Assembly (NCBI RefSeq): GCF_038025025.1 | Contig: NW_027117338.1 | Span: 1,550,001 to 1,614,000 of the forward strand | Source: Phyllosticta citribraziliensis | Lineage: Eukaryota | DNA length: 64,000 nt | Direction: 5' to 3' | Part shown: positions 6,488 through 50,038 of the stretch, piece after piece | Position numbering within the stretch: the first letter of the stretch is position 1 | Layout of the letters: each line of letters opens with the position of its first letter | Program-made: the position numbers and the translations under genes | Notes under the pieces: model-generated | The model's database searches: none | What the model saw: the letters and a program-made list of their open reading frames with translations, nothing else | What the model was told of the DNA's origin: nothing

Positions 6488-6504
6488 CCCCCCCCCCCCC
6501 CCCC
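6488..6504. repeat. poly(C) tract, 17 nt
   Basis: Read directly. Confidence 0.95.
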
Positions 6505-6620
6505 TACCCCCAAACAACACACAGTTTGTCCATCAGGACTTCGTTGACACCACAGCTGTCAGGCCAAGCTGTGTGGAGGAAGACAGCCAGGTGGGCAAGC
6601 AGTCAGGACTAAATACTAGG

Positions 6621-9874: not shown

Positions 9875-10557
9875 GTCGCATATGCCTCCTGGACTTGCCG
9901 TGGGCTTCAGGAGCGTTGGCATCTATTTTACTCGACTTTACCCCCTGCTAAATCAAGCTAGCGAGGACCTGACGGTTGGTCGATTAAGCGGATTTCACAG
10001 TCGGCGGGTATGTGACAACCGCGCCGCAGTACGGGAGAGCGCTTAAAGGCGATCAGCGACCCAATGGCAAAGCGAGATTGCGGGCAGCAACACAAGCGCC
10101 GCCTCGCTAACAGTCTTCGTGATGTCTCCAGTCGCGAACTGCACGTTGTCTTCCACATTCTTCACAGTCCTTCTTTGCCGCAGGAGTGCGCGGATTGACC
10201 AACGCTAATTTCAGTGGGGTAGATGCTTCTGCGTCAACAAATAGGAGACAATACTGCGTGTAACCATCCCGCCCACGGCAGACAGGGACGTGGACATGTT
10301 GATGAGGCTGAAATGTCAGCGCTTCCCGACTCGCAGAGCTGTGCCCCATGCGGTGACAGTGGCCATTGAAAGCGCACCACTCGACTTCTTAAGAAGAAAT
10401 TGTGTCGCAAGAGCAGTAACGTCGTCCTCCATTTGCAAACTTCATTTCTTGTTCTCCCACCTTCCTCTGCGTAATTCAACACGTCCTCGCAAGTAGGACA
10501 CGAACGTCACTTTGCCAGCTCTCTTTATTCTTCGGGGCGAAACTTTTCTCAATCATC

Positions 10558-11396
10558 ATGTGGAACGTGAGAGTGGCAATCGTACTCCTCGGCCTCCTGG
10601 CGAGGTCAAGTGTCGCGGATGATGACAACGTATTTACAAATCCAACCGGCCCCGGACCGTCGGGAAACTTCGCTACAAACCCAGAGTGGAAGCCTGGTTC
10701 TGTTCAGCGAATTTCTTGGAAAACCACCCTCGACGCCTATGAGATAGCACTGTTCCATCAGAAAAGCAAATCTGGGTCCGGTGATCAGGTCCGAGTAGTC
10801 CACAGTGAGTTTTTAAAGACCTAGGGCTTTCAACGCTGACAAATCTCCCAGCAATAGACAGCAATGGCTCTGGCGACCAGTCTTTCGATTGGACAGTCGA
10901 CACATATGGAACAAGTACAACTTCGTCCTCTGCGTTCTATTTCTCGGTCGATTCTGGAAGCTCGGACGGGTTCACCTCGCATTACTTCAACGTCACCGGC
11001 GGGGCAAGCACTACAACCAGAAGAACTACGTCAGCAAGTCCGAGCCCAACAACTTCCAGTATCGCAGCTCCTCGGAAGACAACGACCACCACCTCCGCGC
11101 ATCATGCAGGCAAGACAGCAGCGGCGGCAGCTCCAAAACCCAAATCTAATCCAAAGCCGAAGAAGTCAAAGAGCAAGTCAGCGCCGAGTTCCAGTCCCCG
11201 CACTCTTGGACTTTCAATTGGCCTCGGATTGGGAGCCTCCATTCTTGTTATAGGGGGCTTCTATGCGTTCTACGCGATCAAGGAATCGGGACCTATCCAG
11301 CGCCGGCGGCAGCTGGCGGAAGACAAGAAAAACGCCGTTCCAGTGTGGTGTCCAGATGAGCAGGTTTTCAAGTACTCCGTGGGCTCAGCTTGCTGA
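10558..11396 (+). CDS. Signal peptide + small extracellular domain + S/T-rich stalk + single TM protein (Mid2-like architecture)
   Basis: Exon 1 MWNVRVAIVLLGLLARSSVADDDNVFTNP...; intron gtgagt..cag (~10805-10851); exon 2 ...FTSHYFNVTGG, T/S-rich, TM LGLSIGLGLGASILVIGGFYAFYAI, stop at 11394-11396. Confidence 0.75.
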
Positions 11397-11440
11397 CCAG
11401 AAGAGCGGACCTGGTCTTGCATCGCCAGTGGGAGAGCCAG

Positions 11441-11657
11441 CACAGTGAGTGTCGAAAGAAAAGGGACATCGTTCACTGCTATTCTTACGCTTAGGTCGCA
11501 TTCATTCACTACTGTAGTTGCACTCAGGGAGCGTTCGTTCACTACTGTTGTTGCACTCAGGGAGCGTTCCTGTACTGCGCTATATTTGCGCTAAGGGAGC
11601 AGCTGTTCATTCCTGTAGCCAGACCCAGGGAGTTTCTTTCTTCCGACACCTACCGAG
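11441..11657 (+). mobile_element. MITE-like element copy A (CACAGTG TIR, ~4.5 x 33-bp internal units)
   Basis: Starts cacagtgagtgtcgaaag and ends ttccgacacctaccgag; units at 11489, 11522, 11555, 11590; shares gccagacccaggg with other copies. Confidence 0.8.
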
Positions 11658-11742
11658 GCACGTCAAGTCTCCTTGTATTCAACCACAAAACACGTCTTCA
11701 ATCTACATTCTACAATATTGCCAAGTCTTCCAAACTCTCTAC

Positions 11743-13645: not shown

Positions 13646-14147
13646 ATCTGCAAACACTGAAAGACAGAGACTGCAAGATGCTTCGTATGATCCCCAAACG
13701 AGACCGGGCGATTCTTGCTACTAGAAGGCAGTATTGAAAGCTCATAATCAAAGGCCCTGGCCATTCTGTCGTCGCGCATTTTATCCGGTCGTCGCCACGG
13801 TTAGCGACTCCAACATTTCCCCATCCAGCACATCGGTAGCCACAATCCCTGGGGCAAATCAACAGCACAGCATACCCATCATGCCACTGCGGCCGTCCAC
13901 TCAGTCCTCAGTCTCGCGCTCCGTCAGAGTCTCGGCGCATCCCTTCGACCTCTTCCCCGCATTCCGCCTCAGCCTCTACCCCAGGCCAACGCCTCCCGGC
14001 ACGTGCGCATAAATATCCACCAATGGCAACATTGGCGCAGCTCTGCTCTCGTGGCTCCGGAGTTGCACAGAACGACGGTCATCCGACAGGTCGAGGGTGG
14101 AAAGACACCGCGAATTTACGCGAGCAGCGTGTATACGGGTTGCTTTT

Positions 14148-14154
14148 GGCTAAA
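14148..14154 (+). promoter_or_regulatory. Putative XlnR/Xyr1 site (GGCTAAA) in the transporter/GH3 divergent promoter
   Basis: Exact match to the XlnR consensus; a short motif that could be chance. Confidence 0.4.
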
Positions 14155-14353
14155 TATTCAAGCCATTCGTGTGCATGCGAAGGCTTGCGTGCGGGCTTGC
14201 CAGTTCTGGGAATGCGCATCGCGGCAGAAGACCGTAGACTTGCAGCGACGTCACTCTGTTTGTACCTTTTATAACGGCGGCGATTTCTGGATCTCCGAGG
14301 CTGTCGTCCCAATTTACGGTTACGTCCTGGGAGCATTCAAAGCGAGGCTCAAA

Positions 14354-16948: not shown

Positions 16949-17165
16949 AATGGGCGCGCAAGCAGGCGGATGCGCATGCCCTACCCTCTGGCTCCCTGTT
17001 TGAAATGGTAGCGACGCGTAGAAGACGCGATCAGGTTCGTGCAGCTACTGGAGGCGTGTAGCTTTCCATTCTGAGGGTAAATAGTCCAAACGCTTCTAGT
17101 ATCGATTTGATTTAGAGCTTCAAAGATACCTTTTTTGGCTGCCGGCAAGGTCCGGAAGCTGCCGG

Positions 17166-17383
17166 CACAGTGGATGGCGAAAGTAAAGAGACTCCCCAAA
17201 GCTGGTTGCAGCGATGAACAGTTGCTTCCTGATCGCAACTACAGTAGTGAGTGAATGCTCCCTGAACATAACCATAGCAGCAGATAACTGATGCTTAAAC
17301 GCAACTGTAGCAGCGTGCGAATGCTCCTTAAGTGCACTCAAATAGCCAGGAGACCTGTCTCTTTTATTTCGGCACCCTCTGTG
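17166..17383 (-). mobile_element. MITE-like element copy B (4 units) with a 4-bp TSD CCGG
   Basis: ccgg|cacagtggatggcgaaag ... tttcggcaccctctgtg|ccgg; four degenerate 33-bp units. Confidence 0.85.
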
Positions 17384-17453
17384 CCGGCATGAAACATCTT
17401 GAGGAAATACTCGACGCTTTTTGACTCGACACTACTCACCGACCATTGACCCC

Positions 17454-18977
17454 TTACTGCATTCTACCTTTCAAGGCCAACGACGCGTCAAAGACACGCT
17501 TGTACCCTCCAAAGTCGTTCTCCTCGTCGCCGCCAACATCTGGCTCGCCCAGTTTCCGGGCCCACTCGGTGAGGCCGATGGGATAACTAAAAGGACACTC
17601 AGTCAGCTTGAGCTTCAAAAGGCGCGTTGCGTGAAATTGTCTCACCAGCTCTCGACCAACACAGCGACATGGTCGTCCGGGATCTTCTCAGGTTTGATTT
17701 CCTTGTTCATCGAATGCTCGATGACGGGCGCCGACATGCCATGGGTGCTCATGCCATTGTGCAGCATGCACATGCCGATCAGCTCCTCGGGCATGGGCGA
17801 CGTGTCAAAGCCGCCGGAGATGACGGCCGCGAATTCAGACATGGTGTTGCGGTGGAAGTACGGCACGTGCAGCGTGTCCTCCATGACGAGCCAGCGCGGA
17901 CCAATGTAGATGAAGTCGACGGCCGGGTGGTCGGGCTTGTCCGACGGGCACGTCAGCACCGTGAAGATGGAGGGGTCCTGATGGTCGTACAACGTCGAGC
18001 CCATGGTCATGAACTTGCCCAGGTCGTACTTGAATGGGTAGTACGTCCCGTGCCAGGCCACTGCATTGAACGCGCTGCCCTTGAGCGACGCGCGGCTGAC
18101 TTTGCCGGCCATCTTGACGAGCAGCGTCGTCACCGCGTCCGTGTCTGTGAATGCTGCGCATGGAATCTCAAAGTCTCGCAGATTCGCCAGCCCCAGTGAT
18201 CCGATAATGCCCAGTTCCGGCACGTCGAAGTGTCCCGAGAATGTCTCAATCACGTAGCCCCTGGTCTGCCCGCTGGGGAGTGTCACACGGAAGCGGATTC
18301 CCCGCGGTACAACGCAGATCTCGCGGGGCCGCACACGCAACATGCCAAGCTCTGTCTGAATGTCAAGGGCTCCAATTTGGGGCACTGTTGCGAGGTGTCA
18401 GCTGAAAAGGTGGGAAGTTCGACAAATACTTTGTTCTCACCAATCAGCCAGTCGCCATCGGCGCTGTAGAATGCAGTCTGCTCGTCCATGTCGACCCCGC
18501 AGCTGAATGAATAGTACGCCACACCGTTTTTGATAGTTGCATCTCCCGCTCCGCCAATCAGCCTCAGTCCGTCAATGAAGTTGCAGTCCGTCTCAATCTT
18601 GAACGGCTTCCATGAAAGCTGGTCGGGAAGGAAGCTCAGGTCGGTGTGGAAGTTTTGATTCAGGGGATGATCGGGCACCTGCGTCCAGCTTGACTGTGCG
18701 GCCGATGGGAGGACTCGCCACATGAACGTTTGCTTGTTGACGGCACGCTTGGCTGTGAAGGACGACCCACTGATTCGCTCTGGATAGAGGCCGAGATGGT
18801 GCTTCTGGGGGAGATTCTGCGCTTTAGGGAGAGCCCCTGCAATGGCTTCGGATCTGATTGATTCAGTTGCAGTCTTGGGGGAATAGGTCTTGGTAGTTGG
18901 GGGACTTACTCATGGTACGAATTCAGGCCTGTGGCGTACCGGTTACGGTCCTCGATTGCGAACTTCGACGAAGGCAT
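17454..18977 (-). CDS. Homogentisate 1,2-dioxygenase family protein (divergent hmgA paralogue), multi-exon
   Basis: SEAIAGALPKAQN.PQK, FYSADGDWLI, VPRGIRF, VAWHGTYYPFKYDL, DHQDPSIFTVLT, PYFHRNTMSEF, LHNGMSTHG (Fe-ligand His/Glu/His retained). Confidence 0.9.
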
Positions 18978-19699
18978 TGTGGAAAATAGCTTTTTCGTTT
19001 ACCGATGAAGGGTCGAGATGAGAAAGGCTACCAAGACTGCAAAAACGACACGGGCGGGCGTTTCTTTTTTATCCAAATAGCAATCGATGATAGACCTGCA
19101 TATCCAAGGCGAGAAAAATTGCATCACAAAGGCTGTGGAGCCCGTGGACTTGACGTGCGGGGCAGACGTGAGAAAGTGTCGCGGGGAACACGCACTACGT
19201 GGGTCTTTCGAAGACAACTGGCACAACGGACGATCAGCCTCACGTAATGCCCGCAGGGTAAGCTGATCTTGGAGATGATTGAAACCTGCCTAAGACACGT
19301 GTTTAGCTGTTCAATGAGCCTTAGCGAACTCCAGAGGTTCCGTTGAAGCATTCAATCGGCGGCGATTGGCACGGGAAAGTCGATCACCCGCATGGTTGGG
19401 TGGAGATTCGTTCTGCCAATGTACCTGGTGGTGTGATGCTATTCTGATTCGATGCTGCGATGCATGAGCTGGAGACTGTGTCCGGACATACATAAGCGCG
19501 CGGGATGGAGACTCTGAATCCCGGGTACCTTTCGCCTTGCCATAAAGAGTCGTTGTGCACTATCAATTGGGCAACAGTTGTAGGATCGGGAGACGAGCTC
19601 AAAGAGGCTTCACTAGCCGTCGTGATGATCTGCGTTGCATAGAAAGCTGCATAAATCCGCCGTGAAACCGGAATTCGCAACTTGGGGTCCGATGAGAAC

Positions 19700-19846
19700 C
19701 ACAAAGTGGACGTCAAAAGAAATGAGACTCCCTGAATCTGGCTGTTGCAATGAACAACTGCTTCCTAGGCGCAGCTACAGCAGTGTATAAATGCTCCCTA
19801 GACGCACTCACATTGCCAGGTCTCGGTTCTTTCGATACCTACTGTG
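19700..19846 (-). mobile_element. MITE-like element copy C (2 units)
   Basis: cacaaagtggacgtcaaaagaaatgagac ... ttctttcgatacctactgtg; units end gcttcctaggc and gctccctagac. Confidence 0.75.
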
Positions 19847-20258
19847 GCCGTAACACGGTTCTCAGTCACCCCATTGGGGCCCTGCGGTGGAACCCTATGC
19901 ATAATGAATGTCCAAGTCAGGCCTTCTCTCTTGACATACCCCATTTCATGCATCTGTGAATATCAGACACGAACATGTGAAGAGGATTTGTGAAACTCAC
20001 TATTCTTTTGCATCGGAAGACTTCCAATTGATCGAGCTCTCGCCACTTTCGCTAGTCTCTGCTGGACTTCCGGGCTCCTTCAATGTGGAAGCGTTCATGC
20101 TCCCGACGCCCAAGACGAGCCGCACAATCCAGCTGCAAAGGAAGGGGCGTCGATTGAATTTGCTCGAATAGAAGAGCAGAAGACCTGAAGGAGTGGTGGG
20201 AAGCCTGCTGAGCGGGTCAAACGCAGCGTTTGAAAGGCAGATGAGCCTTTTGACAGGT

Positions 20259-23200
20259 TCAGCGTCCACCTGCGTTCGATTCGGCCCACCACAGCGCTCT
20301 CTTCTTCACCAGGTAATTGTACCGATCCCCCAGGACTTCCCGCAAGGGAACCACGTCGTTCAAAGACTTCATCTGATCGTCGAATTTCTGGTGTCGCCTT
20401 TTCAGCCTATCCGCCTCATGGTGTTCGGAATCTGGGAGCTTTTCAATGCAAAGAGTAGCAGGATTGCTCCTCGTATGATCGTCCCGCATGTACAAGGCCT
20501 GCCGACCTGCCAGCTTTTCCCTGAGATGCCTGCGGGCAGAATGGATCAACTTGAGTTTTGTTCCGGTCTTGTTGGGATCGACAAGAAACCTGTCAGTGGC
20601 TTTGCAGAAGCATCCTCCACAAGGGCAACCTAGCGGTGGGCGACTCCAGTTCGGTTCTTTGTATTCTCTCCCGACTCCCTGCATGAGATAGCATTCGATG
20701 ACATTACTGAACAGCGGTCGAATCCTTTCGACCCCGAGCGACTCCCAACGGCCACCCACATGGCGAAGGAAGTTCATCATTGGTTGCGGATAGAAATCGA
20801 CGTTTGTCCGTTTCGCTTCTGATTGAAACTTGTTGAATAGCTCGTCGACAAGCTTTTCGTCATGAAGCTTCTCGTGCAGGAAGTCGAACATGCAGTTGAT
20901 CAAAGTCGGGCTGACAGCAGGCGTTACCTCCCAAGGGTCTGGAGTTGGCGATTTCGACGGGAAAATCATCGATCTTTTTCTGCCCGCTAAGGGCTCGGGT
21001 TTTCTGGGTTTTTGTTTCGCAGCGCGCAGGTCGAGATGCTGAATACACAGGGCAGCAATGTGTCTGTAAATCTGACTGGCCGTCTCTGCTGGAAATCGAT
21101 GCGGGATCAACTCGACTTGTTCTACAATGCCTCCGAGGAAGCTCATAGCAAACTCGGTATTTGAAATGTTGCGCTCAACGACATCTGTCACACTTGAAGC
21201 GAATCAGCCTTGTCATTCTGCCAGTTCCATGGATCGGTACCGTCACTCACCTGGGCAAGGCACCTTTAGTGTCATCTGAAAGGTAGAGAATTTCAGCCAG
21301 AACCCTTCCATCTTCAGAGTCGACATCTGAAGACCGACTGATGGCTTCGCTGAGTCTTCCTGAAGCCCAAGAACAGAATCCCGACTCTTGGCATTTTCTC
21401 TTTCTCTCTTCAAAGCCAGCCTCGTGTGGTCGAAGAATCCCACGGCATAACTTGAAGACTTGATGAATGGACGGATGCAGAGACACGAAATGAGACAGTC
21501 TATCAAGAGTCAGTGCTTGGAGACGCAAAGTCTGGGCTACAGCTTACGAATGCTCCAGGAACGCAAACCCCCTTTCAAAGAGCCAGCCAGACAATGCTCC
21601 CAAAGCGAAGCTGGGCAGGACACCATGGGATAAGCCTTCGGATACGATTTCGAAAATCTTTGGGTTGTCGCATTTAACAGCCGCTCGCAGCATGGTGTTG
21701 ATGTCGGTTTCGCCCCTAAAGTCTTCCCAATCTATCAAGTACTTTTGCGGCCTCTGCTGAAGCATGTAAATACGGCTGAAGTTTTCCAGTGCTTCTCTGA
21801 CAATGGGTCTGTCAGGCTGTTTTTGCAGCTCGTTAAGTAAGAATCCGACGGTTTCCTCGAGGTTGAATAGGTAGGTGTGGTCCTGGTCGTATTTCCAAGA
21901 TTGGTCATGAGCCAACGTCGACGTTAGGAATTTTGGAACTTGCTCCCACGGCATGAATACGATGGCCTTTGATGATTAGTGGAGTGCCAGGAATGGTCTC
22001 AGAAGTATACTCACGGTGTGTCGGTACCAGTGGGTTGCATCGCAGCCTTCGTTGCCCGTATATGGAGTGAATTCAGCATCGTCAGGATCACCCGCGCTGA
22101 GACTACCACGTTTCAACAAAGTATCGGGTTCCTCATCAGGGCCAAGCCAAACGTTGCCCGCAACTTCTTTGCCCGCAAGGTCGACTACTCGGGTCAACCT
22201 AATTTCTGTTTCGCAGATGTCGATGATTCTATGGTACCTCCTTTTTCGTGCCCCGTTGCGATTTCTGACAGGCTCATCATCGGCACCTCCATAACGCATT
22301 TCGGCGATGTTCGCAAGGAAGACGCAAAATCCAGGGGCTTCGCAATGGTCCTGGAGAGCTCGAGCTTGCGCAAGGTCTTTGCCTTTCAATTTATCGAGTC
22401 CCAAACTCGACTGGGTGTACTTGTGCTCTAGGACGTAGACAAACCACTGCTTCCTCCAGAAGTCTTCCCTGTTGCAAGCCTGTCGCCAACTTCCCAGGGT
22501 CCTTTTGAGCAGCGGATATTCATGACGAAGACTGGACATTGACGCGGAGGCCGGTCGAATCAAATTATAGGTCAGGACCCATCGATGACCGGCTGTTATT
22601 TCCGTGATTTCATGCTGGACGTCGGAGTACCTGTGCGTTATTTAGTAGAGAACTAGAATTGATGCTGGAGGATACTGACCAGAAGAGACAAGACTTGTAG
22701 CATTCCGACGTTCTGAAGATTCTTTTCTGGTCACCAAGCTGAGCTATGACATCACCACCTCTATGAGGCGCTGGTAAGCAAATGACAAGGGTGCCAAACA
22801 TGTCGCGCTCCTTCTCAGAACTGTTGTCTGTTAGCGAGCTGTGTGGTTGAAGTATATGGCCACTATCCTACTCTTGATGGGGTTTAAAATGGGCGCCTTT
22901 TCCATAAAGCAGCATCTTGTACAAATGAGCTTCGATTCGAAGCTCTGGATCAATTCCTAGCACCATCTGGACCGTTTTCAAAGTTTTGTCCATAAAGGTT
23001 GGCCAGAAGGGGTTGGTGATTAGAAAATCTGCTGCGTCCATTTCCCACGAGCTTCGGACGGCTGGATCAACAATTGTTTGGGAGCCTTTGCCGAAAGGCG
23101 ATGGTCGGCATGCGTTCGTCAATTTCTGTACATCCTCGGGCACAAGCGGAGTGTTGATGATTCCAACATTTTTGACTTCGATTTTCGGATCCACGAAGTC

Positions 23201-23372
23201 GGGGTCAACATCCAAAGAGGTAAACGACGCAAAGGTGCCGGCGCAATCAATTCCGTCGAGCTCAGCGGCAAGCTCTCCACGGAGAGTCGGGTAGTCTGAT
23301 GGGTCTTCTGAGACGAGGCGAAGGGATCCATCTGAGCGCGGTGAAGAAAGAGCAGCAAGGTCCTCGTCCATG
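20259..23372 (-). CDS. 2OG-Fe(II) oxygenase-domain protein with a long C-terminal extension, ~6 exons
   Basis: SPFGKGSQTIVDPAVRSSWE, LYKMLLYGKGAHFKPH-Q-D (spliced), MFGTLVICLPAPHRGG, later YVLEHKYT and YTGNEG motifs; start codon uncertain. Confidence 0.85.
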
Positions 23373-23592
23373 ATGCCGCCGAGTTCAGCGATTGGTGTTG
23401 CAGTTGGAAAACGGGCGTTGAGGATGGACCAATGGAAATTATTCGGCTTCGACGCGTCCGCGGAAACGCGTGAAGCAGTCGACACCCGTGATTTGGCGCT
23501 AGTCCACTCTGAGTTAGAGCCCGGCCGCAGCGAGACGTCAACAGCGAACGTCGCGTCTCAACCTCTCCTCACCCTCTCCGCTATCTAGTTCG

Positions 23593-23746
23593 CATCGGTG
23601 GGTGTATAAAGATGTGTGACACCCTGGGTCTGGCTGCAGCAGCGCATGGATGCTTTCTAAGCGTGACTGTAGCAGTGAATGGATGCTCCCTAAGCGCATT
23701 CATGTTGCCGGGAAGTCTCATTTCTTTCCATTCGACACCCACTGTG
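23593..23746 (-). mobile_element. MITE-like element copy D (2 units)
   Basis: Shares gacaccctgggtctggctgcagcagcgcatg with the reverse complement of copy E; ends ttcgacacccactgtg. Confidence 0.85.
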
Positions 23747-24004
23747 GTGACTGGATTGGGCTCCTCCATCTTCAAAAGGCTCCCCGCAATATCCTTAAAT
23801 TCTGGTTTGCTTGACGTTCCTATACACATCCATTTTCTGTTTGTTTGGTGTTACAATCTCCGCCTCCATCCCTCACCTCGTCCATATGTCCTCTTGTTTC
23901 CTCTCTAGCCGTGATTTTCAAAAACTTGCCCCCTTTCCCACCACTTCAACTGGTGATTGTAGCTCTCACATTCATCTCGAGCTGCAACCCAGCCAATGGC
24001 AGGA

Positions 24005-25026
24005 TCAATGTGATCCAAGCTCGACCTTCGGCTCATTCGCAGGCATCTCGTAAATTTCGCGACCGCGAAGCTCCGAGATAGCAGGAGAAAACATGGGCTC
24101 CTCCGGAGAGACAATGAAGGGAGATATGATGGGCGATTCTGGCCTTGGGCAGCTCTTCTCTTCCGGAATTCGCGTTGGCGCAGTGTCCGATTCTATGCTG
24201 GCCCTCGGTTTGGCCGCCGAGGACTTGCGTTTTCTGTCAACGGCGACTCCAATCGCGGCTCCTGCGACAAGCAGGATGGGAATTCCGAGGCCGAGCCCCA
24301 TGCCGAGCCTGAAGCTCAACTGCTTCGATTCCGTGGTGGATGTGTCTGTTCCATTGGCAATTCCCGTTGCCGTTGGTGCGCTACTAGAAAGAGTATGGAG
24401 GGCCGCAGTCGTTGGCTCCGAAGCCCCATCGTCGATACTGCTTGTGGCCGTGCTGAGCGTCGTTCCAGTCGGGAAGCTTGCGATACTGTCAAGAGACGTG
24501 CTGGGTGCAGTAGCTGGTGACGTCAGAGAAGACTCGGGAGACGTGCTTGTGGTCGTCGGAGAAGTCGAGGTCGAACCATCGGTGATGTTAAAGAAGTGGG
24601 ATGCGAACATTGGCTCTGAAGCATTGTGTGTGTTGATCCAGAAGCAAAAAATTGGCGAGCGTCCCAGGGTGTCGTCATCCACGTCCACTATCCACTGCTT
24701 TTTGCCGTCTCCTGCGGCAGCATCATAAGCTAGGTATGTCAGTCCTCGACAAAGAAAATGCCTTGGTGCGTGGGGGACGCACAAGCTATCCGAGAGATCG
24801 TTTTGACAATGAGAGTGTCAGGATTTAGCTGCCACAACTCGAGGTCGTATGTGTCATAGGTTGTCGACCATGTTATCAGCATGGAATCTCCAGTAAAGAC
24901 GAGTGGGTTGGTGGAATAGTTGTAAGTGAAGGCTTCGGGTCCGGGCTGGCTGAAGTAATTCTCATCATCGGCGAACGCGTTGCGCGCCAGTGCGACGAGA
25001 ATCAAGCAGAGGTAGGCGAGCCACAT
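24005..25026 (-). CDS. Signal peptide + S/T-rich + single TM protein, paralogue of 10558..11396
   Basis: MWLAYLCLILVALARNAFADDENYFSQP...YSTNP...ITWSTTYDTY; intron ~24732-24783; SHFFNITDG, S/T-rich, TM LGMGLGLGIPILLVAGAAIGVAV. Confidence 0.75.
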
Positions 25027-31610: not shown

Positions 31611-32792
31611 TCAGTCTTCGAAGCGAATGCCGTTGAAGGCGTTGGTGTCGATCTGGCCGCCGCGGTAACTACCGCGCTTGCCCTTGTTCTTCTCTTTGGT
31701 GAAGCCCTTGCCCTTGGTGACGATGAGGCGCTCGTGCGCCGAGTTTGCGTAGTCGTACGGCACGTACTTGTTGCTGGAGAACTTGGGGTCGACGAACTGG
31801 TCCTTGGGGATGCGGCTGAAGGGCTCGTTTTGCGCCTTGCGTGCGCGCTTGGCGCTGCTGGGGCCGTCTTCGGAGTCGTTGGGGGACGACGAGGAGGGCT
31901 CTGGGGACGACGAGGCTTTGCGCTTCTTGGAGGCGGTCGCGGGCTTGGGGGAGGCTGAGAGCGTCGCGCTGGAGCCGGAGCTCGCGTCGGAGGAGTCCTC
32001 TTTGATGGCCTTCTTCTTGGACGCGGTCTTCTTCTTGCTCTTCTTGTCCTCGGAGGAAGACGAGGAGGATGAGCTAGAGCTTGAATCAGAGCTGTCGCTG
32101 TCGCTGTCCGACGAGTCGTCCTTTTCAGATGCCTTCTTGTCCGAGTCCGAGTCTGAGTCCGAATCGCTGTCACTGCTGTCGCTGTCGGATCCGCCCTTTT
32201 CGCTGGCGGACGAGTTTGAGGAGGAGCTGTCAGAGCTGTTGGAGGACGAGGATTTGGCGCTGGCTTTGCTGCTAGCCGAGGAGCTGCTAGAAGAGCTGCT
32301 AGAGCTGCTAGAGCTGCTAGAGCTGGCTGCCGAGGCTTCGGATTCGGCGTCGGAGTCTGAAGAGTCGCTGTCGCTAGAGTCGGAGTCGCTGTCACTGGAA
32401 TCGGAGTCGCTGGAGTCGCTGTCGCTCTTGGGCTTTTCCTCCTTCTTTGCCTTTTTCTTGGGCGGCTCCTTCTCGTCCTCGCTGTCCGAGTCGCTATCGC
32501 TGTCGCTCTCACTTTCGCTTTCGCTCGTGTCTTTGTCACTCTCGCTGTCGCTGCTCTCACTGGTGGCTTCCTTGTCGGATTTCTTCTCCTCCCACTTCTC
32601 GACGAGCTCAGTGAGGGCAGGCTTGTCCTTGGCCGTGTCCTTCCAGCCCTCTACGTCGGCATTGGCGTCCTTCTCGAGCTGCCGGGCCGCCTTGTCGAAA
32701 CCGTGGGTCCGCAGAAATTTGTCGACGAGGTCGAGGACGGCGGCCGGGGCCTTGGGGGTGGCCTCGGGCTTGGGGGCCTTGGTCTTTGCCAT
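31611..32792 (-). CDS. SRP40: Nucleolar Ser/Asp-rich phosphoprotein Srp40/Nopp140
   Basis: LisH-like N-terminus (LVDKFLRTHGFDKAARQL), SD/SS repeats, C-terminal SRP40_C signature LIVTKGKGFTKEKNKGKRGSYRGGQID. Confidence 0.92.
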   Translation of the reverse strand: MAKTKAPKPEATPKAPAAVLDLVDKFLRTHGFDKAARQLEKDANADVEGWKDTAKDKPALTELVEKWEEKKSDKEATSESSDSESDKDTSESESESDSDSDSDSEDEKEPPKKKAKKEEKPKSDSDSSDSDSSDSDSDSSDSDSSDSDAESEASAASSSSSSSSSSSSSSSSASSKASAKSSSSNSSDSSSSNSSASEKGGSDSDSSDSDSDSDSDSDKKASEKDDSSDSDSDSSDSSSSSSSSSSSEDKKSKKKTASKKKAIKEDSSDASSGSSATLSASPKPATASKKRKASSSPEPSSSSPNDSEDGPSSAKRARKAQNEPFSRIPKDQFVDPKFSSNKYVPYDYANSAHERLIVTKGKGFTKEKNKGKRGSYRGGQIDTNAFNGIRFED

Positions 32793-33412
32793 GGTGATGA
32801 TGACGAGAGTAGAGAGAGGTGGAGGAGAGTCGTGGGGTGGGGAGAGATGGATAGAACAATGACTGCGTGCGTGCGTGTGTTGAGGAGTGTCCAAAATTTC
32901 GACCAGGGATCGGCGTGCCAAGATTCACGCGCCGAGAGAGAGGCCGACCGGGAGCAACCCGGAGCTGAGCTGAGCCGGGCCATGGACGGAGGGACGGGGA
33001 CGGACAGCCAGCCAGACCTGACGGGAGCCAGGGCACCAGGGCACCAGGGCACCCACCTGCTCTCCTCAGACTTCGGCGGAGCTGTCTCTCCACGACTGAG
33101 ACACGCCGCATCCAGAGCCGCCGCCTGCTTTGACAGAACCTGTCACACTCGCCCGTCCCACAACCTCCCGACCTCCTCATCCTCCTCCATACCTCTCCCA
33201 ACGTCCGCTGCTGGCCCCGTCCGCCCCCGTTCCCCGCGCCCACCGCAATTGCCAGCGAAGCCACCGCTCCCGTTTCACCTCACCCTCGATCTCCAACGTC
33301 GCCGTCTGCGGATGATGACCGTTGCGCCCTGCGTTCCTTTCACGCCGCGCTCACAGGACCGTGTCTCGATTCACCCTTGAGCTCTCCCTGATATCCGTGA
33401 CCAACTTCGGCC

Positions 33413-36400
33413 ATGAACGGCTCCTACGACCGCCAGCAGAGCCAGGATGGAAGGGCGCCGCGCTCCGCCTCAGCTGCACCCACCAGCGGCAGTGGACGAG
33501 CCGAAAAGTACGAGGATGAAAAGCGGAGGATAATTGAAAGCTGCTTCTCCAAAATGGACACCAACGGAGCCTGTATGCGGCACGAGGCCGACCCTTGCCC
33601 GCTGGACCTGCATGCGCTGACTGCTACAGTATCCGAGTCGTACATTACCCATCTGCGCGTCACTGAAGATGCTGCATACCCGCAATCGCCGCCTCCGCCG
33701 ACCTCCAACCCGAACAACAAGAAGCCCCGTGTCATCATCGTCGCTGTGCGTAGCTCCGGGCGGGTCAGAATGCACAAGGCTCGCGAAAACTCCAACGGCA
33801 CATTTTCGATTGGCAAGACATGGAACATGGAGGACCTGACGGCCATCGAGTCGTTTGCCAATGCGATGCCAAAGGATTCAGAGGAAGCTCAGAGGAAGGA
33901 TTGGGCTGGTCCGACGGGTTTCATCGTCACCCTGGCAAAGCCGTACTACTGGCAGGCAAACTCGCCAAAAGAAAAGGACTTTTTCATTAACAGTCTCGTC
34001 AAAATCTACGGCAAGTACACGTCTGGTAAAGTGCCGCGAATGCTTGGATTTACCCAGAGAGAGTTGGACTTGATGGCTCGCCCGCCTGCGAAACCAGCAG
34101 CGCCATCCAGCCAGAGCGTACCTCCTGCTCCTATTCCAAAAGCCCCGTCCAGTCCGAGCTCGCGGCCACCTCCTTCAAGGTCTGCGGAATCCCCTGGGCG
34201 AGTGGTTGCTGCTCCACCGAGAGATCGATCCAGAGATTCTCCGCGCCGGCGACCCGTGGCAGCAGGTCGGGAGAGCTCAGAGGCCCGCCGGAGAGACCCC
34301 TCGCAGGACTCTGCCGAGCCAGGACTGCCACCGCCTTTGCAACCGCGAAGCCGCCCTGGCACGTCAGACGATAGAGCGTCTTCACAATCAAGACCACCCC
34401 CCTCACGAAGTGGAGAGACTGCGCCAGGCGTTCCGCCTAGTTGGGAAGCTCGCCAGTTGAGATCACAGGCATCAGGAGAGAGAGTTGCAACGAGGGGCGC
34501 GAGTGGGGACCAGATGCGTCCTAGACCAAGCCAGGAACAGTTCAGACCGTCTCCTGGTCCTCCGCCGTCGCTGTCGTCTTCTGCTCGCCTCACCCCGCAG
34601 TCCTCCCAATCCGAATTTTCCCAAATGCAGTCATCGCCCGATCCGCCACCAACGCGGCCACAAATCTCTATCCCGGTGCAAAGTCCAGCAAGACGTGGCT
34701 TCCCCAAGGCTCCTCTTGATCCTTACTCAAAATCGACAACACCCATTGACCCTCCGCCCAAATCTCCCGCCAAGAAGTCCTTCGACAGCAGCCTTGGCGC
34801 CTACGGCAGTCCAGCCGAGTCTGCCGTACCAAGTCCTTCTAAGCTTGGCCTGAATGGTAACCGACGAGATCAGACTCCACAAGGATTGCGGCCGGGTACC
34901 TCTCAGAGCAATCTTTCCAGAAAGGATGAAGCGGCGGACGAGCCTCTGAAGGCACCACCGCCAGAGCGCAAGAGACCTCCAATATTACCAGCTGTATCGA
35001 CCGGTAGTACCGCGGATGCTCCTCCAAAGTCACCTCGTTTTGGCGATATCCCGCCTCCTCTCAAGTCACCTCGAGCCCCACCTTCACCCATCGTCAAGCC
35101 CAGCCCAGTCCTGGCGCCACAGGCTATGCCGGGATCCTTTATGCCTTCGGACACGGAAAAGAGCACGCCGGAACTCATGGCCAAAAAATCCATTCCAGAG
35201 ATGCCGCCAGCCAAGATAGAGCCGGAAGAGCCCAAGGCTGAGGAAACGACTCCTCAACAAGAACTAAGTCCGGAGGCAGCTCCATCGGCCGAGCCAAGCC
35301 TAGAGTCTCCACAGCGCAAGAGCGATGATTCCGAGGAGGCGAAACCGGCGGGTGGCAACATGCTAATGAAAAAGAAGCTTGCATCGGCTGGCTCAGACGG
35401 CAAGCCGAAGATGGCAGACGTTTTGCGGCGTGCTGCCAATGCTTATGGAGCGTTCAAACCACGTGCGGGTGGTGCTGCGGAAAAGTTCAAGGCTGCGCTC
35501 GCCGACGCACCATCCGAACAGAAACCAGACGGCATAACTGGAGTTTTCAATGCGCCATCGCTTAACAGAACTGGGACGGATGACAGCATCAGGGCTGAAA
35601 CACCAAAGTCGGGTGAGCCAGAGGCCAAGGATGACGTCAAGAGTCCCGATCAGGACATCTCGTCACCGTCGCCTGCGCAGATTCCGGAGCTGCAAATCTC
35701 TGCTCCCAATGCAGCTGCCAAAGCATACCAAGAGTCGGACTCTCGGCGTGCGTCAAGTCCTGATACTAAGCGTGGGAAATCGCCAGAAGACCTCCGTCGC
35801 GCGAGGCGCCGGTCCAATCAACAAGCCAAATATCTTACATCCCTTGGAGTGGACGTGGGCGTTCTCGACACCCGAGGCCTCGAAGTCGAGTCAATTCTTT
35901 CAGACTTTGGATGGGGTAGCACTGGTCTTCAGCCAAAGAAGCTCGAGGCTTTTGAAGCCGAGCTCAAGCGCGAAGTCGCTCGCGTCGAGGCAGGCGCCTG
36001 GCTCAGCAACCAAGACACTGACTATGACAAAGTCGAAGTGGTAGCCACCATGATGGATAGGGTCATTGCAGAATGTGATGAGCTTGAGGGTCTACTGACG
36101 CTCTACAATGTGGAGCTGAGCAGCTTGAACGACGACATTGCGTTTATCGAGGCACAGAGTCAGGGTCTCCAAGTTCAGACTGCCAACCAAAAGATTCTTC
36201 AAGCAGAGCTCGAGAAACTCGTCTCGACAATCTCCATCGACAAGCGTCAGCTGGAACCTCTGCGCGGCGCTGGAATCGGCAAGGCAGAAGGTCTTGAGGC
36301 CATTGAACGTGCGCTGTTGCTGTTGTACAAGGCCATGGTGACGATTGACCCTGCGATTCGCCGTGGTGTGGAGATTGGCGAGAAGATGGGCGGTATGGGA

Positions 36401-38279
36401 GACAGCGAGCTGTCAAACATGAGAGCATTGCAAGAAAAGAAGCAGAGCTACATCCAGGAGAGCGCCTTCTTCCTCCAGCGCTTGCGACAGCACATGGACA
36501 TGACTTTTGGCGCCGCTTTGTTGAACACGAAAGACGCCATCCAACGCCAAAGCGCTGGCCATTCGACAAAGCTTGACCCCGCTACGCACGATTTTGCCCG
36601 CAACGCACTTTGGCAATACAGCCCTCTGATGTTATTCGCCAAGGAAATTGACGGTCAAACCTGGGATGGGCTCCTGCGCTCATACCAAGAGCGGTCAAAG
36701 CCCATCTACAAGGACGAGTTTAGAGGGAACATGGCAGCCTGGACCAGGATGGCTCGCAAGATTACTGGCGACGAACAAGATCTCTTGTTCACCTCTCAAG
36801 AAAAGGACGCGGAGACTTTGAAGAGCACAACGCGCAAGCTTACCGTCAAGCGCAGTGGTACTCTTGCCCGAGGACTTCGATCAAGCTCCGGCGAGAAGAC
36901 CAAAAACATGTCGGGCACATTGTTTCCGTTTGAGGCCTTCAGCGGAGCGCTGGATGAAATGTGTCCACTTGTTTTTACAGAGCAAAACTTTGTCGTTGAG
37001 TTTTTCCACGCAACTTCCTCCGAGAATGTCGACTTTGCCGACGCTGTCAATGCCGCGCCTCCGTATCAGCGCAAGGGCTCCAATTTGCTGGCGAGGCGCA
37101 TGTTTGAACCAGATCGCGCAATGGCCAAGCGGGTGATTGAAAGCATGGAATCCATCTTTGGGTGGTGGCAGGGTGAGCTCCAAAGTTCAGCCGATGGAGT
37201 TGTCGGCAGTGATCCTCTGTAAGTACGGTCTTGTGTCTGTTGGATATGCGCTCTAACAAATTTCGTAGGCAAGGCGTTGGTATTCTGGCATCGTTGGACC
37301 GCAAGCTTATCGAACTTGAGGAAACGAACCAGGATTTCCTAACAAAGGTCATGCAGGGTCTTCAGGGACGCATATCTACGCAATTCCAAAGATTCGTTGA
37401 AACCCAAATTGCGGCCATTGAAGACACCAAGGTCAAGATCAAGAAGAGAAAGGGCGTCATTGCCTTTATCAAGACCTTCCCGCACTTTAGTGCCGCCATT
37501 GAGAACATGTTGCCGGCTGCAGATGACCCGGAGCGTCTTGAAGTCAGAGGCTTGATCGACGAGGCGTACCAAAAGATCAACAAGGCCATGTTCGAGTCTT
37601 TGAAGGTCATTGCCAAGGAAAGTCCGACCGCCATGGCTGCACAGGTGCCCGGTGTGTCTGGCGTTGGTGCAGACCCCGAGGACAAGGAGGCTCTGAACTA
37701 CCACATTCTGCACATTGAAAACATGAATCACTACATTGAAGAGGTCGACGAGCGCGGCGATATTGTCCTCGGCGAATGGAAGGAGAGGGCGCAGGGCGAG
37801 ATGAATGAGCACATGTCGCTTTACGTGGACGCTGTCATCCGCCGCCCTCTGGGCAAGCTTCTGGTGGGTATACGAAAAACTCGAGATGGAACGAACACGT
37901 CTAACATGAGGCTTAGGATTTCCTTACTCCAATTCCCGGTCTCCTGCGGGCAATGCCTTCAGGGACGCCGCAAAGCGCTCTTGCAGGCCGCCCCTCGCAC
38001 AGCCGCTCCGTTTGGAAAAAGATGGTCGCATCGTACGATTCAAAGGAAATCCGCAAGGGCATCGAAGCGCTCCGCAAGCGCGTCGAGAAGCACTTTGGCG
38101 ACGCGGACGACCTGGGCATCAGCCGCGGGCTCGTCACCAAGGTGCTAGGCGAGTGTGAAAAGAAGTACCAGGACGTGTGGCAGAATGTCATCGAGGTCAA
38201 CAACACCATCTACGGTGGTGATGTCGATGTTGGTACCTGGGGAGACGAGATTGGCGGTTCTTTCAGGGGATCCAAGTAA
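33413..38279 (+). CDS. SEC3: Exocyst complex component Sec3, 4 exons
   Basis: N-terminal PIP2-binding domain (YITH..V.ED, FSIGKTW...DL, KPYYW), Pro-rich linker, coiled coil IAFIEAQSQGLQVQTANQK, C-terminal KKRKGVI.F and IENMNHY; introns 33573-33629, ~37219-37268, ~37864-37916. Confidence 0.93.
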
Positions 38280-42785: not shown

Positions 42786-45638
42786 ATGTCCTCCGTAAAG
42801 CAGTCTTCGCGGAATCGCAAGACCCCAAGAGTCAACGATCCATACAGACGAACCTCCTTGGCGTGAGATCACTCTATCGCGCGTACGATTGATACAAAAC
42901 TTCGTCTGACAAAGCTGGACCAGTTGCGAAGTCTGTCGAAAGCGGAAGACAAAGTGCACGGGCGAATTGCCTTGCTGCAGGTATTGCAAGCTGCACAATC
43001 TCGAGGCCAAGTGTCACTATCTTGAGCAAGAGCAAAAGGTTGCTGTGCCAAAATCATATCTTCTGGAGCTCAAGGCTCGGCTAAAAGCCTACGAATGCGA
43101 GTCTTCTGTCTGGTCAAACGAACTTGTTGACTGACTCTGTGGTAGCTGGCGCTGTTCCAACAAACACACCATTGGCGGAACCATCTCCAACTTCTGTAGA
43201 TGATCCAGAAAACGTAGAGTCCGAGGCTTTTGAGGAAAACCCCTTGACCGAGGGCCTTGCGCATTTGACCATCACTCCCTCAGGTCAACGACGTAAGATC
43301 TGCCATCCAGTCCAGAATCCTTTTCGGCTAACTTGAGAAGACTACTTGGGCCACTCATCGGCGACGAGCTGGGCTCTCCGACTGCGCAACTTTGTCGAAA
43401 ATGACACGCATCTTGACCAGGACCTCAAAATCGAGGTCCAATATCCAACATACAACCCGGCGGCATGGCCCAAACGTCGTCCGTCACTCACAGATCAAAC
43501 GAGGCTACCGCCATATGACTTTTGCCGTCATCTATACTATGCCCAATATCAGGTTTCAATATTCTGAGCCAAGTTCAGGAATGCCTCCTAACTGACTTGC
43601 AGTACATAGGCACGATCTTTTCATTTGTTCCTCCACGAGTATTCGAAGAAAGGCTGCAAAAGGCCCATGACGAGGCCCTGGATCTATCAGACCGTGAATC
43701 ATGCCTGGAGTATTGCCAGGTCTTGTTGATGCTCGCATACGGTCAGCTTTACAGGTGCGCTCGCTTCGCCGAAGAAAAATTATGTTTGTCTGACCTACTT
43801 CGACAGCGTCAACCAATGGAATAGTCCAAACGGACCGCCTGGATTTGACTTCTTTATGCAAGCTCTCGAGTTTTTGCCAGATATCCATGAGGAAGGGTCC
43901 GTGCTGTTCGTCGAAGTGCTTTCCCTTGTCGGCTACTTCATGCAGAACCTACACCGTCGAGATGCTGCATTTCTATACGTTGGTTCCTTCCACGCCTCTC
44001 TGATTCGAGAGGACTGACGAGTAATCAGATTGGCTTGGCCCTGAGAATGGCCATATCCCTTGGGCTCCATCAGGAGATGGCAGATCCAGACCTTGATGAA
44101 GAAACCAGAGAGCATAGACGGCGTCTTTGGTGGTCCGTCTACTCCATGGATAGGTAGGCTTCCTGGTCAACACCGATTGGCAGTACTGACGGATGAAAGA
44201 ATCCTATGTGCCAAATCAGGTAATCCAATCACGATTCTTGACGAAGACATAGGTGTTTTGCCCGCGTCGCGGCTTCCAGATGAACCTGAGATATGCCCCG
44301 CGACTGTACTATCTCATTACACGCAACTATCTCGAATCACTGGCCGGATTATGAACGGTAAGCGCTTCCAATCCAGTTCGATGACACGTATCGACCAAGT
44401 GGTGGAGTTTTCCGTCGAATCTCTGCGTAGTTCTTCGCTTCCACCATCTGACCGAACTAGACATCTACCGCAGAACCGGACAGAGCGTCAAAACAGGCCC
44501 CAGCCTCGTTGCTTCGGTCAGTAGCATCATGGACGATCTCAACAGCTGGCGGCGTGATCTCCCCGCCAGCCTTCAATTCGATCGCTCTCGACTCAACGCC
44601 GGTATCAAGCGCGAGACTGTTTCCGTCTTCCTCCACTTTTACCAGTGCGTCAACATGACGGCACGCCCGCTGCTCTTCCGAATTGTCCAGCGGCGGATTG
44701 CTTCTGAAACAAAAGAGACGGAGTGGCAAACTGGACTGTCTCCCATGACGATCCAAGTCATCAAGGCATGCGTCGCCGCCGCAAGAGACAGCACCGCGAT
44801 TATGCAGGCGGCCGCGCGGCAGAACCAAGTTGGTGAGTCTACGACTTTGCAATTGCTTGCCTGATCGGTCGACCGAGTTCTAACTGAAGCCGCAGCCAAC
44901 TTTGGCTGGATGGACAGTGAGCACTTGTTTAGTGCGGCGATCGTGCTCGTCATGATCAACCTCGCCTTTCCGCGCAACTCGCGCGATGCGCAGGCCATGG
45001 ACACGGCGCTCGAGGTCTTGCGCGGCATGGCAGAGAAGGGTAACAGCTACATCCGCGCACGCCACGAGCTTCTCATCAAGCTTCGGAGCGTGACTTCGGC
45101 GTCCGCAAGCAACCCACATGCGTCATCTTCTAGTGTCCCCGTCGCGTCGAACAGTGGCCTTGCTTTTACTTCTTCGTCTCCTCCACTTTACGACGTTAGC
45201 AGTAGCGCGACCACCAATTCAGCTCGACACGGGAATATTGCTCGCACTTCTCCGTCTGCACCTCCTTCCTACTCTGCTGCTTCCCCTATTCAAATGGCCG
45301 CACCTCAGAACCGAGCTCGACAAGACTCGTCGGCTTTCTCCCCAAACTTTGCCAGCTTTTCATCTTTCCCTGCGTCATCTTTCGGTGCCACGGCTGCGAA
45401 CACAGGGGCAGGGGCTGGGCCAACACAAGGAGCATCAGACGCGGGGCTGTGGGAGGACAGCTACGGGACCTTTGACGCAGGAATGAACGGCATGGATTGG
45501 GACAGTTTCTTGATGACTGGTGTCGAAGGAACAGCCACTGGTGATTGGCCAGTGAACGACGTGGAGCAGCAGCACCAGCAAAGGCGAGACGAGGGCTGGG
45601 CGGAAGTATTTGACGAGGATGGGGAGCGATGGGTCTGA
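42786..45638 (+). CDS. Zn(II)2Cys6 transcription factor with a fungal-specific TF domain, multi-exon
   Basis: Spliced ACEVCRKRKTKCTGELPCCRYCKLHNLEAKC; YLGHSSATSW; GLALRMAISLGLHQE...RRRLWWSVYSMD middle homology region. Confidence 0.92.
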
Positions 45639-45658
45639 GTAGCATCGGGGAGCAGCGG

Positions 45659-45872
45659 CACAGTGAGTGTCGAAAGAAATAAGACTTCCTGGCAATATAA
45701 ATGCGCTTAGAGAGCATTCATTCACTACTACAGCTATAATTAAGGAGTAACAATCTGCTATTACAGTCACGCTTAGGGAGCATCCATTCACTACTATAGT
45801 CACGCTTAGGAAGCATTCATGCGCTGCTGCAGCCAGACCCAGGGTGTCTCATTTATTTCTCCACCCACTGTG
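45659..45872 (+). mobile_element. MITE-like element copy E (4 x 33-bp units) with a 4-bp TSD GCGG
   Basis: gcgg|cacagtgagtgtcgaaagaaataagac ... gtctcatttatttctccacccactgtg|gcgg; units at 45705, 45738, 45771, 45804. Confidence 0.9.
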
Positions 45873-46363
45873 GCGGCTTAACGAGCGTAGGAATTGCAGG
45901 AAGGGGGAAGCCCTAGTTTTGTTCTAAACATCAGTGCATGTTGAACGCAGTTGAAGCAAGTGAGAATGACGACGGCGACCTCGACCATCCAGTCGGTACG
46001 ATGGCGGTCCGGAATGCTACAACTCCTTAGCCCAGGCTCGAAAACTGAACGACCAATCTAGCTCCAAGGAAAGAGACCGGGGAAACCCTATAACGAATGC
46101 GTCGAGGGCAAGGACCTTGGCAATTGTTGGCCAATGGCGCAGCGGCTCGTCCCGGATCTAGACCAGCTCCTCCAACGTCAGTGGCGGCAGGCGGACGACG
46201 GCACGACGGCAACGACCAAAGGGCCATCTGGTGACGTCTGACGAACAAGTGGGGACCATTCTCCACTACCCATGGTCGTCCGCATTGTCCAACGACGTCT
46301 TTCCTTTTTCTGAGACAACTGCGCTGCAGAACGTTGCATGGCCACACACAGCATTTACCTACC

Positions 46364-47042
46364 ATGACGTTCCAACAAGAAATGCGGTCGTGGCTTTCGC
46401 CTGAGCATAAAAAGACGAACCCCGTCCCCGAGATTGGCTCCAGAGCCCCGTCGGCAGACAAGCTTTCACTCTCGGGAGCCGAGGCAAAACCGACCGTCAT
46501 CACCTTCCTGAGACACTGCGGTTGCCCTTGTACGCTTCCACCATTGTTTTTGTGATCCGCAGGAGAAAGCACCGCTAAGACAGCATTCTTGCACACGCAC
46601 TCCAGTTGCAGAAAAGACGTTCCAGTCGCTCCGCACCTCCGCGGCGCAAAATCCAGACGTCCGCTTCATCGCCGTATCGCAGAGCGAACCCGCCTCAACA
46701 CAACGCTGGGCGGAAGCCGTCGGTGGCAGTGGCGCAGTTCAGGTCGTCGTCGACGCAGAGCGCGACCTCTTTGCGGCGTGGGGCCTGGGCGTGTCGTCGT
46801 ACTGGCACGTCCTGAGCCCGGGAAGCATGTACTCCGTATTCAAGCTGGGCAGACAAGAGGGCATTTGGAACAAGCCGACGGAAAGCGGCAATCGGTGGCA
46901 GACGGCGGGCACTTTCGCGGTCGATGCGGAGGGTGTTGTCAGATGGAGCCGGCCTGCCGCAAGAGCAGACGATTTGCCAGAATTCGACGAAGCGGTTCGG
47001 GTTGCAAGAGGGACGCCGACATTAGAGAGGGCCAAGTTGTAA
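46364..47042 (+). CDS. AhpC/TSA (peroxiredoxin-like 2 family) thioredoxin-fold protein, 2 exons
   Basis: EIGSRAP, VITFLRHCGCP(intron)AEK CxxC-like motif, VVVDAERDLFAAWGLG, GNRWQTAGTFAVD. Confidence 0.8.
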
Positions 47043-48878: not shown

Positions 48879-50013
48879 GGTTCGGCATCGCTTTCGTCGT
48901 TCAAGAAGACGGATATAGCCAAATTGTTGGAGAAGCTTTCAATCGAGAACCCAATCCGGCTGTTTGTCTCTCTCTCTCTCTGCCTTGATGACTAGAAATA
49001 AGCAATCGGGCGGCGATGATGTTGGTGATGTAGCCTGTGCGTTGTCCTCCGCCCAGCCGGGGAATTCTTTCCATCCCATCCATTTTTGAACCAGTCAGAC
49101 CATCGTCCCATCACATCAAATACCTCTCTCCAAACCCTAAACAGACCTTCATCGACAAGCAAAGATGATTGTGATGAGCGTGAGCACGAGCCCTGTGATA
49201 TCCTCGCCCGCCGCAACTCACTTCCCATGTACCCCCCTCCCGCCGCACCCCCTATCATACTTTGACTTCAACACCACCCTTCCCTCCACCGCAGTGACCG
49301 CCGAGGGGAAAACAATACTGTCTAGATTTAGCTTCTGGAGGTCACAGCAGTGCTCTTCAAGTGCAACTACCGCAATTGCCACCATTTCCCCGAACGCAAC
49401 TGGACAGTAAGGTACATGCAGTCAATGCTCAATCAAAACTTCACAACTTCCCAAATGCGGCCACCAGCAAGCGCACCCGTCAACCTGTCAGACCAAACCC
49501 CGAAACCGACAGCAGACGACGGACTGGATTAGCCCACGCACCACCACCCACTTAGACGAGCAACTAGAGTAGCACGGCGGACGGCCTTTTCACCCCCCAC
49601 CCCGGACCCCCACACCACGCCGCGTCCGTCCGTCCGTCCGTCCCTCAAGTCCGTCCATCTACCTTCTAGACGCGCGCGCTCCGCCCCCCCGCATTTTTCT
49701 AGAACGCGCGCGGCGCAAGTCGTTTTGGAATGTGTAAGCAGGAGGAACGAACGACCGCCGACGGCGGCGATGGCCGCGGCTGTCGACTCAAACTCTCGAT
49801 CTTCGACCTGCCTGCCTGCTTGCGTTATCATCCCTTTCTTCGTTGCCATCATCACGCGCGCGGGCGCGCGCGCGCATCACGACGGGCGTTGCCGCTACGT
49901 GGCTGCAACGATCTAGATATCAATCGAGCCCCTTTGGCGCGATTTCTCCTCCGCGTCTCGGCTAATGGTTCGTAGGTGAAGTCTGCCGAGCTGCCGAGTT
50001 GCCGATTGTTTTT

Positions 50014-50038
50014 GGGGGGGGGGGGGGGGGGGGGGGGG
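50014..50038. repeat. poly(G) tract, 25 nt
   Basis: Read directly. Confidence 0.95.

Follow-up and report, generated by a model that had tools for sequence, protein, structure and literature searches.

The stretch of DNA analysed here, referred to below as the window, is 64 kb in length and contains five old, non-coding copies of a short repeat that constitute a genuine MITE (miniature inverted-repeat transposable element) family in Phyllosticta. All five are intergenic, situated between ORFs and close to the ends of genes, and the ORFs that overlap them match no Pfam family. Copy A (11441..11657, plus strand, 217 bp) lies after an ORF ending at 11393 and before a minus-strand sugar-transporter gene. 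Copy B (17166..17383, minus strand, 218 bp) is found between the converging genes for a GH3 glucosidase and a homogentisate dioxygenase, and copy C (19700..19846, minus strand, 147 bp) is upstream of the homogentisate dioxygenase gene. Copies D (23593..23746, minus strand, 154 bp) and E (45659..45872, plus strand, 214 bp) are located between ORFs to which no family could be assigned. As the sequence-only reading had stated, no transposase is encoded in the window, where no autonomous element was seen either: none of the 97 ORFs scanned matched a transposase family at E values up to 1e-5.

Several other features of the window were recorded. An ORF of 1269 aa at 33413-37219 represents the exocyst subunit Sec3, with an identity of 97% to P. 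citrichinensis, of 92-94% to P. citriasiana, P. citricarpa and P. paracitricarpa, and of 90% to P. capitalensis, which identifies the host as a species of Phyllosticta. On the minus strand, at 31614-32924, there is an SRP40-like gene (SRP40_C, E value 5.6e-22) containing short DNA repeats that encode serine and acidic residues, and these account for several of the direct-repeat families detected in the window. Two homopolymer tracts, one at 6488-6519 (17 C residues, then TACCCCC) and the other at 50007-50038 (approximately 25 G residues), were matched to each other in the repeat search as inverted copies separated by 43 kb.

An 18-nt consensus of the repeat ends, with at most three mismatches allowed, gave eight matches in the 64 kb, compared with 0.07 expected, and none of 100 shuffled sequences reached that number. 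Seven of the eight matches are ends of copies A to E, in agreement with the earlier claim that the copies have inverted ends in common. The positions of the five non-coding copies in the sequence-only reading proved correct by direct reading and by alignment. A profile built from the five recovered exactly these copies in the window, with E values ranging from 6e-64 to 3e-36 (8e-59 for copy A, 2.6e-61 for B, 3e-36 for C, 3.4e-37 for D and 6.4e-64 for E). It is apparent that the copies have the properties by which MITEs are recognized, being short, non-coding, present several times and bounded by terminal inverted repeats.

No further convincing copies were found in the 64 kb with the family profile, the remaining matches consisting of self-matches of the arms and a weak piece at 6184-6270. 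That piece matches an internal 33-bp unit of the element with an E value of 0.01, no end is situated nearby, and it is possibly a relic or a chance match. The eighth match to the end consensus, at 10801..10818 on the plus strand, is a lone end-like 18-mer with three mismatches; an ATG follows 48 nt further downstream, at 10866. Within 10801-10865, this 18-mer is followed some 40 nt further on by a stretch resembling the inner arm of the element, and 10691-10856 is covered by a diverged contig from one of the sequencing runs considered below (X2), with six differences and one gap. The region 10801-10865 may thus be a truncated copy that is now part of the upstream region of a gene.

The copies range in length from 147 to 218 bp (n=5), and their arms are imperfect inverted repeats of approximately 34 nt that begin with CACAGTG. 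In copy B the arms are 33 nt long and 85% alike, and in the centroid fold of copy E positions 1-34 pair with positions 181-214. Outside this end stem, folding was no better than that of shuffled sequences (z −0.96; 32 of 200 shuffles folded as well). Between the arms are direct repeat units of 33 bp, whose number varies from about 1 to 3.5; there are 2.1 clean units in copy A and approximately 3.5 looser ones in copy E, and the shorter copies, copy C among them, carry fewer. The units are all in one orientation, and the element therefore has polarity. A reading of the ends as heptamer, spacer and nonamer was given no weight, since the arm is evenly conserved over its approximately 34 nt and the two arms are alike.

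The state of the ends differs among the copies. Copy E is the best preserved, with both ends intact; it starts with CACAGTGAGTGTCGAAAG, and its other end is a close variant of that sequence in reverse complement. Both ends of copy B are nearly intact, one of them reading CACAGAG. In copy A the left end is intact and the right heptamer has decayed, in copy C the end at 19700 has a 2-nt insertion within the heptamer, and in copy D the end at 23593 has decayed. When considered in the element's own orientation, the damaged heptamers of A, C and D (11650-11657, 19700-19709 and 23593-23600, respectively) are all at the right end, and those of A and D both read ACCGA where the intact heptamer has ACTG. 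This pattern of damage may mark a subfamily, or damage confined to one side, rather than random decay.

Pairwise identities among the copies are 66-75%, with the exception of the D-E pair (89%). Transitions outnumber transversions in all 10 copy pairs, and the G+C contents of the copies (44-52%) are lower than that of the window (55%). The identities of 66-89%, together with the single decayed end in three of the five copies, indicate that the family is old, and we infer that it is probably no longer moving.

Evidence for copies beyond the window was obtained from other sequence collections. Ten sequencing runs were compared with it by words; eight share words with 44500-47000, the highest share being at most 0.33. 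Contigs of four of the runs (X1, X2, X5 and X7) were aligned, at 80% likeness, to the region 10400-24400, which contains copies A to D. The pieces from X1 and, in part, X7 agree with the window at every base and contribute no independent information; those from X2 and X5 are diverged. Inside copy D, up to five contigs of X1, three of X2 and three of X5 were aligned. Loose ends, in which the termini of the element stand beside flanks other than those of the window, were observed in single contigs of X2, of X5 (at two places) and of X7. Loose ends in X1 had been built from two contigs (agreement 0.65-0.73) and were excluded from the end counts.

Different flanks accompany the five copies and the four loose ends from single contigs. 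With the same termini found beside different flanks in X2, X5 and X7, the family must be dispersed among organisms that bear these three other labels, and the copies that had been predicted to exist outside the window do exist. No contig joined across copies A to D, and no empty site, was found among the X1, X2, X5 and X7 contigs on 10400-24400. In a metagenome, at least 120 loci had a 17-nt degenerate pattern of the ends, and a blast search (BLASTN) with the five copies gave one match of 23 nt (locus L111), beyond which the locus contains nothing of the element. The metagenome matches listed are chance.

The window and the loose ends together allowed the border of the element to be placed. 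CACAGTG or a near variant is present at most ends, and its terminal CA/TG pair is kept at nine of the 10 ends in the window and at all four single-contig loose ends (13/14). The pair immediately outside it, which would belong to the target duplication if that duplication were 8 bp long, is kept at two of 10 ends in the window and at one of three loose ends (3/13). The difference in conservation between the inner and outer dinucleotides is significant for the window by itself (Fisher P 0.005) and for all ends (P 3e-4). Within a single duplication, host DNA would be expected to decay to the same degree on both sides; the retention of the inner pair and the loss of the outer one therefore indicate that CA/TG belongs to the element. 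The ends are therefore of the 5′-CAC..GTG-3′ form that is typical of CMC (CACTA-Mirage-Chapaev) termini.

With the borders set at CACAGTG and CACTGTG, the 4-mers on either side of each copy were compared. Copy B is flanked by CCGG (17162..17165 and 17384..17387) and copy E by GCGG (45655..45658 and 45873..45876), exact direct repeats that had been described from the sequence and that were found as described. Both consist of G and C only. Among lengths of 2 to 10, a repeat of 4 bp is the only exact one that fits both copies; a match of a single base is present at copy E and absent at copy B. Random pairs of sites at the spacing of the element share a 4-mer at a frequency of 0.0045 (200,000 placements), and the probability of finding exact 4-bp flanks by chance in at least two of five copies is approximately 2e-4.

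At copies A (left CCAG, right GCAC), C (GAAC, GCCG) and D (TTCG, GTGA), no duplication was observed: matches occur at two, one and one of the four positions, respectively, and the total of four in 12 is at chance level. This is far below what would be expected from the simple decay of a 4-bp duplication. In each of these copies, the heptamer at one end is also altered by substitutions or small insertions, and the damaged heptamers and chance-level flanks, taken together, point to a rougher history of these ends than decay by point mutation.

The flank of copy B is ambiguous in one respect. CCGG is a palindrome, and with two outer bases on each side it forms the longer palindrome TG-CCGG-CA, so copy B by itself cannot separate a direct from an inverted repeat and copy E is the only copy with an unambiguous direct repeat of 4 bp. 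Just to the left of copy B (17139-17167), the 10-mer GCTGCCGGCA is present twice, 19 nt apart, and its second occurrence overlaps the first two bases of the copy. The 8-nt core of this 10-mer, TGCCGGCA, is found again at the right border of the copy (17379-17386), and TRF reported a 10-nt array at 17138-17167. The repeat beside copy B could represent a palindrome favoured as a target, an old footprint or a coincidence. The palindrome at copy B and an 8-mer of the form TG....CA that follows one of the X2 ends are similar in form, and such palindrome-like flanks may reflect a preference for palindromic targets.

Elements of the Chapaev type make duplications of 4 bp, as stated in the sequence-only reading, and the autonomous elements of the CMC group encode a DDE transposase with C(2)C and H(3-4)H motifs. 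Mostly CA..TG termini and duplications of 2-5 bp are given in one account for the clade comprising EnSpm/CACTA, Mirage, Chapaev, Transib and relatives (PMC12730594), and lengths of 2-4 bp for CMC and 5 bp for Transib are given in another, as far as its accessible text goes (bioRxiv 10.64898/2026.08.26.747230). The CA..TG ends and short duplication observed here match the description of the clade and so suggest a non-autonomous derivative of the CMC type. A duplication of 4 bp, as observed at the two copies with intact ends, would be within the CMC range of 2-4 bp; the other three copies, which show none, are uninformative in this respect. The copies are thus probably the old remains of a non-autonomous cut-and-paste DNA transposon, a CMC-type derivative that is Chapaev-like by the length of its duplication, although we hold this with some reserve. 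The placement in the CMC/Transib clade is drawn from the structure of the ends, and the superfamily and mobilising enzyme are those that such ends would predict. The choice among Chapaev, another branch of CMC and Transib is one that we infer from two copies.

On this CMC-type, Chapaev-like reading, a DDE transposase encoded elsewhere would bind the ends and cut the element out. The element would then be inserted into GC-rich DNA through a cut with a stagger of 4 bp, and repair of that cut would generate the 4-bp duplication, which would still be visible at the two copies that have both ends intact.

The sequence-only reading had proposed a CMC/Chapaev- or Transib-like derivative. Its description as a non-autonomous family with terminal inverted repeats and CA..TG ends stands, and 4 bp is the duplication length that fits both intact copies, although the fit of copy B to 8 bp as well went unremarked in it. 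Its Transib branch fares less well, since neither of these copies, B and E, has a flank repeat of 5 bp. Transib elements are not known to be common in fungi. A MITE moved by a Transib-type (RAG1-like) transposase, with the CACAGTG heptamer and a GC-rich target as its hallmarks and a duplication of variable length, is nevertheless to be considered, and we regard it as unlikely. Transib ends carry a CACAATG-like heptamer, their targets are often GC-rich, and lineages with 3-bp or TA duplications exist, both duplication length and target composition being variable within Transib, according to the part of the preprint that is available (bioRxiv 10.64898/2026.08.26.747230). Both exact flanks here are indeed composed of G and C only, but they are located in a window that already has a G+C content of 55%, and in which no RAG1-like gene was seen. 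The likeness of CACAGTG to the RSS heptamer is a trait that ends throughout the clade have in common, and it provides no evidence for a link with RAG. The narrower proposal, that the mover belongs to a Transib/RAG1-like lineage in a dothideomycete, with the exact CACAGTG heptamer, GC-rich targets and a 4-bp cut, seems to us very improbable. If true, it would mean that RAG-related transposases extend into the filamentous ascomycetes, with a new cut spacing, and only with such a Transib-like partner enzyme would the family represent a new kind of biology.

If the true ends were instead CAGTG..CACTG, the element could be hAT-like and duplicate 8 bp at targets of the preferred form TGnnnnCA. In that register copy B has TGCCGGCA on both sides (8/8), and copies E and A match at five and four of eight positions; one of the X2 loose ends is followed by an 8-mer of the TG....CA form. 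Under a 4-bp model the four additional matches at copy B would occur by chance about once in 256 cases, which is real evidence for this alternative. However, copies D and C match at only three and two of eight positions, the three mismatches of copy E are all in the outer four positions, and neutral decay cannot keep the inner CA/TG while losing the outer TG/CA. The usual hAT target pattern has T at position 2 and A at position 7, which these 8-mers do not fit, and an 8-bp duplication was not borne out for the family; we consider a hAT-like origin quite unlikely. An origin in some other superfamily whose ends are CA..TG and whose duplications vary, for instance the fungal Kyakuja-Dileera-Zisupton group, appears improbable. 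Kyakuja elements with CA..TG termini and 7-bp duplications are known (PMC12730594), and the Cryptococcus elements KDZ2 and KDZ3 give duplications of 4-8 bp (PMC12810828), but the Kyakuja families described in the accessible part of the former paper are without inverted repeats, the examples in the accessible parts of these accounts come from basidiomycetes, and nothing in the present copies is specific to the group. A Tc1/mariner-type MITE, similar to mimp of Fusarium, with CAGTG ends and a TA duplication, has next to no probability: the inner end, CAGTGRGTG..., resembles Tc1-type termini such as those of mimp and impala, but TA is next to CAGTG at none of the 14 ends, 13 of which have CA/TG and one a decayed pair, and CA and TG are inverted rather than direct and so cannot be a 2-bp duplication. 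By the flanks of these 14 ends, this alternative is refuted, and termini of the form TA|CAGTG, named in the sequence-only reading as a case that would refute it, were not observed. It is also highly improbable that the copies are no transposon at all and represent instead a host repeat, such as a regulatory or structural element, that recombination has dispersed. The intergenic position of all five copies close to gene ends and the lack of a duplication at three of them would agree with such an origin; the inverted ends with sharp borders, different flanks everywhere, variable number of units and two exact flank repeats would not, and neither would the lack of any fold beyond that of shuffles outside the end stem.

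The element is of an ordinary kind, and the family is apparently uncatalogued, a judgement made from the literature that allows for an existing Repbase or Dfam entry. In a literature search no paper with these end sequences was found, the one match being to an unrelated fish paper, nor was any MITE found described for the genus Phyllosticta, the papers retrieved dealing with arthropod mites or with other organisms; by title or abstract, no relevant paper on a fungal MITE with CACAGTG ends was seen. In P. ampelicida, 87% of the interspersed repeats are unclassified, according to the available portion of the report (PMC12506662). With a curated entry for the family, repeats in Phyllosticta genomes would be masked better and gene models close to the ends of genes would be improved, and the family could provide insertion-site markers that separate closely related citrus-associated species. 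Such an entry would also lengthen the short list of dothideomycete MITEs that have CA..TG ends and a 4-bp duplication.

It is of interest to compare the family with known systems. Zymoseptoria tritici, also a dothideomycete, has 13 reported families of MITEs, and duplication lengths are given for 12 of them in the accessible text: nine are 2 bp (eight TA and one CT), two are 5-6 bp and one is 8-9 bp (PMC4522978). The Phyllosticta copies resemble these in being short and in residing in gene-rich DNA of a dothideomycete, and differ in their duplication of 4 bp, a length that is absent from those 12 families. The family resembles Transib, ProtoRAG and the V(D)J RSS in having a heptamer of the CACAGTG/CACAATG type right at its terminus and in its GC-rich targets; it differs in that the canonical duplication of 5 bp is not seen, no RAG1-like gene was seen in the window, and the arms are alike, with no sign of a 12/23 asymmetry. 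Among fungal CMC elements, one with CACGG ends and TA duplications has been described, as has CNIRT6 of Cryptococcus neoformans, an autonomous and active CACTA element of approximately 6.9 kb with CACTG ends and a 3-bp duplication (PMC12810828, in the part available). CNIRT6 is similar to the present family in that it is a CMC element of a fungus, its ends are of the CACTG type and its short duplication varies in sequence, whereas the Phyllosticta copies are decayed, are only 147-218 bp long, have a duplication of 4 bp and are from an ascomycete rather than a basidiomycete. In comparison with Chapaev and the CMC group in general, the Phyllosticta end reads CACAG and not CACTA, the host is a dothideomycete, and the family is known here from non-coding copies alone. 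The family shares with the group its CAC..GTG termini, inverted repeats that are long and imperfect, and motifs repeated within the ends, and the 4 bp duplicated at its two intact copies would be within the range of 2-4 bp.
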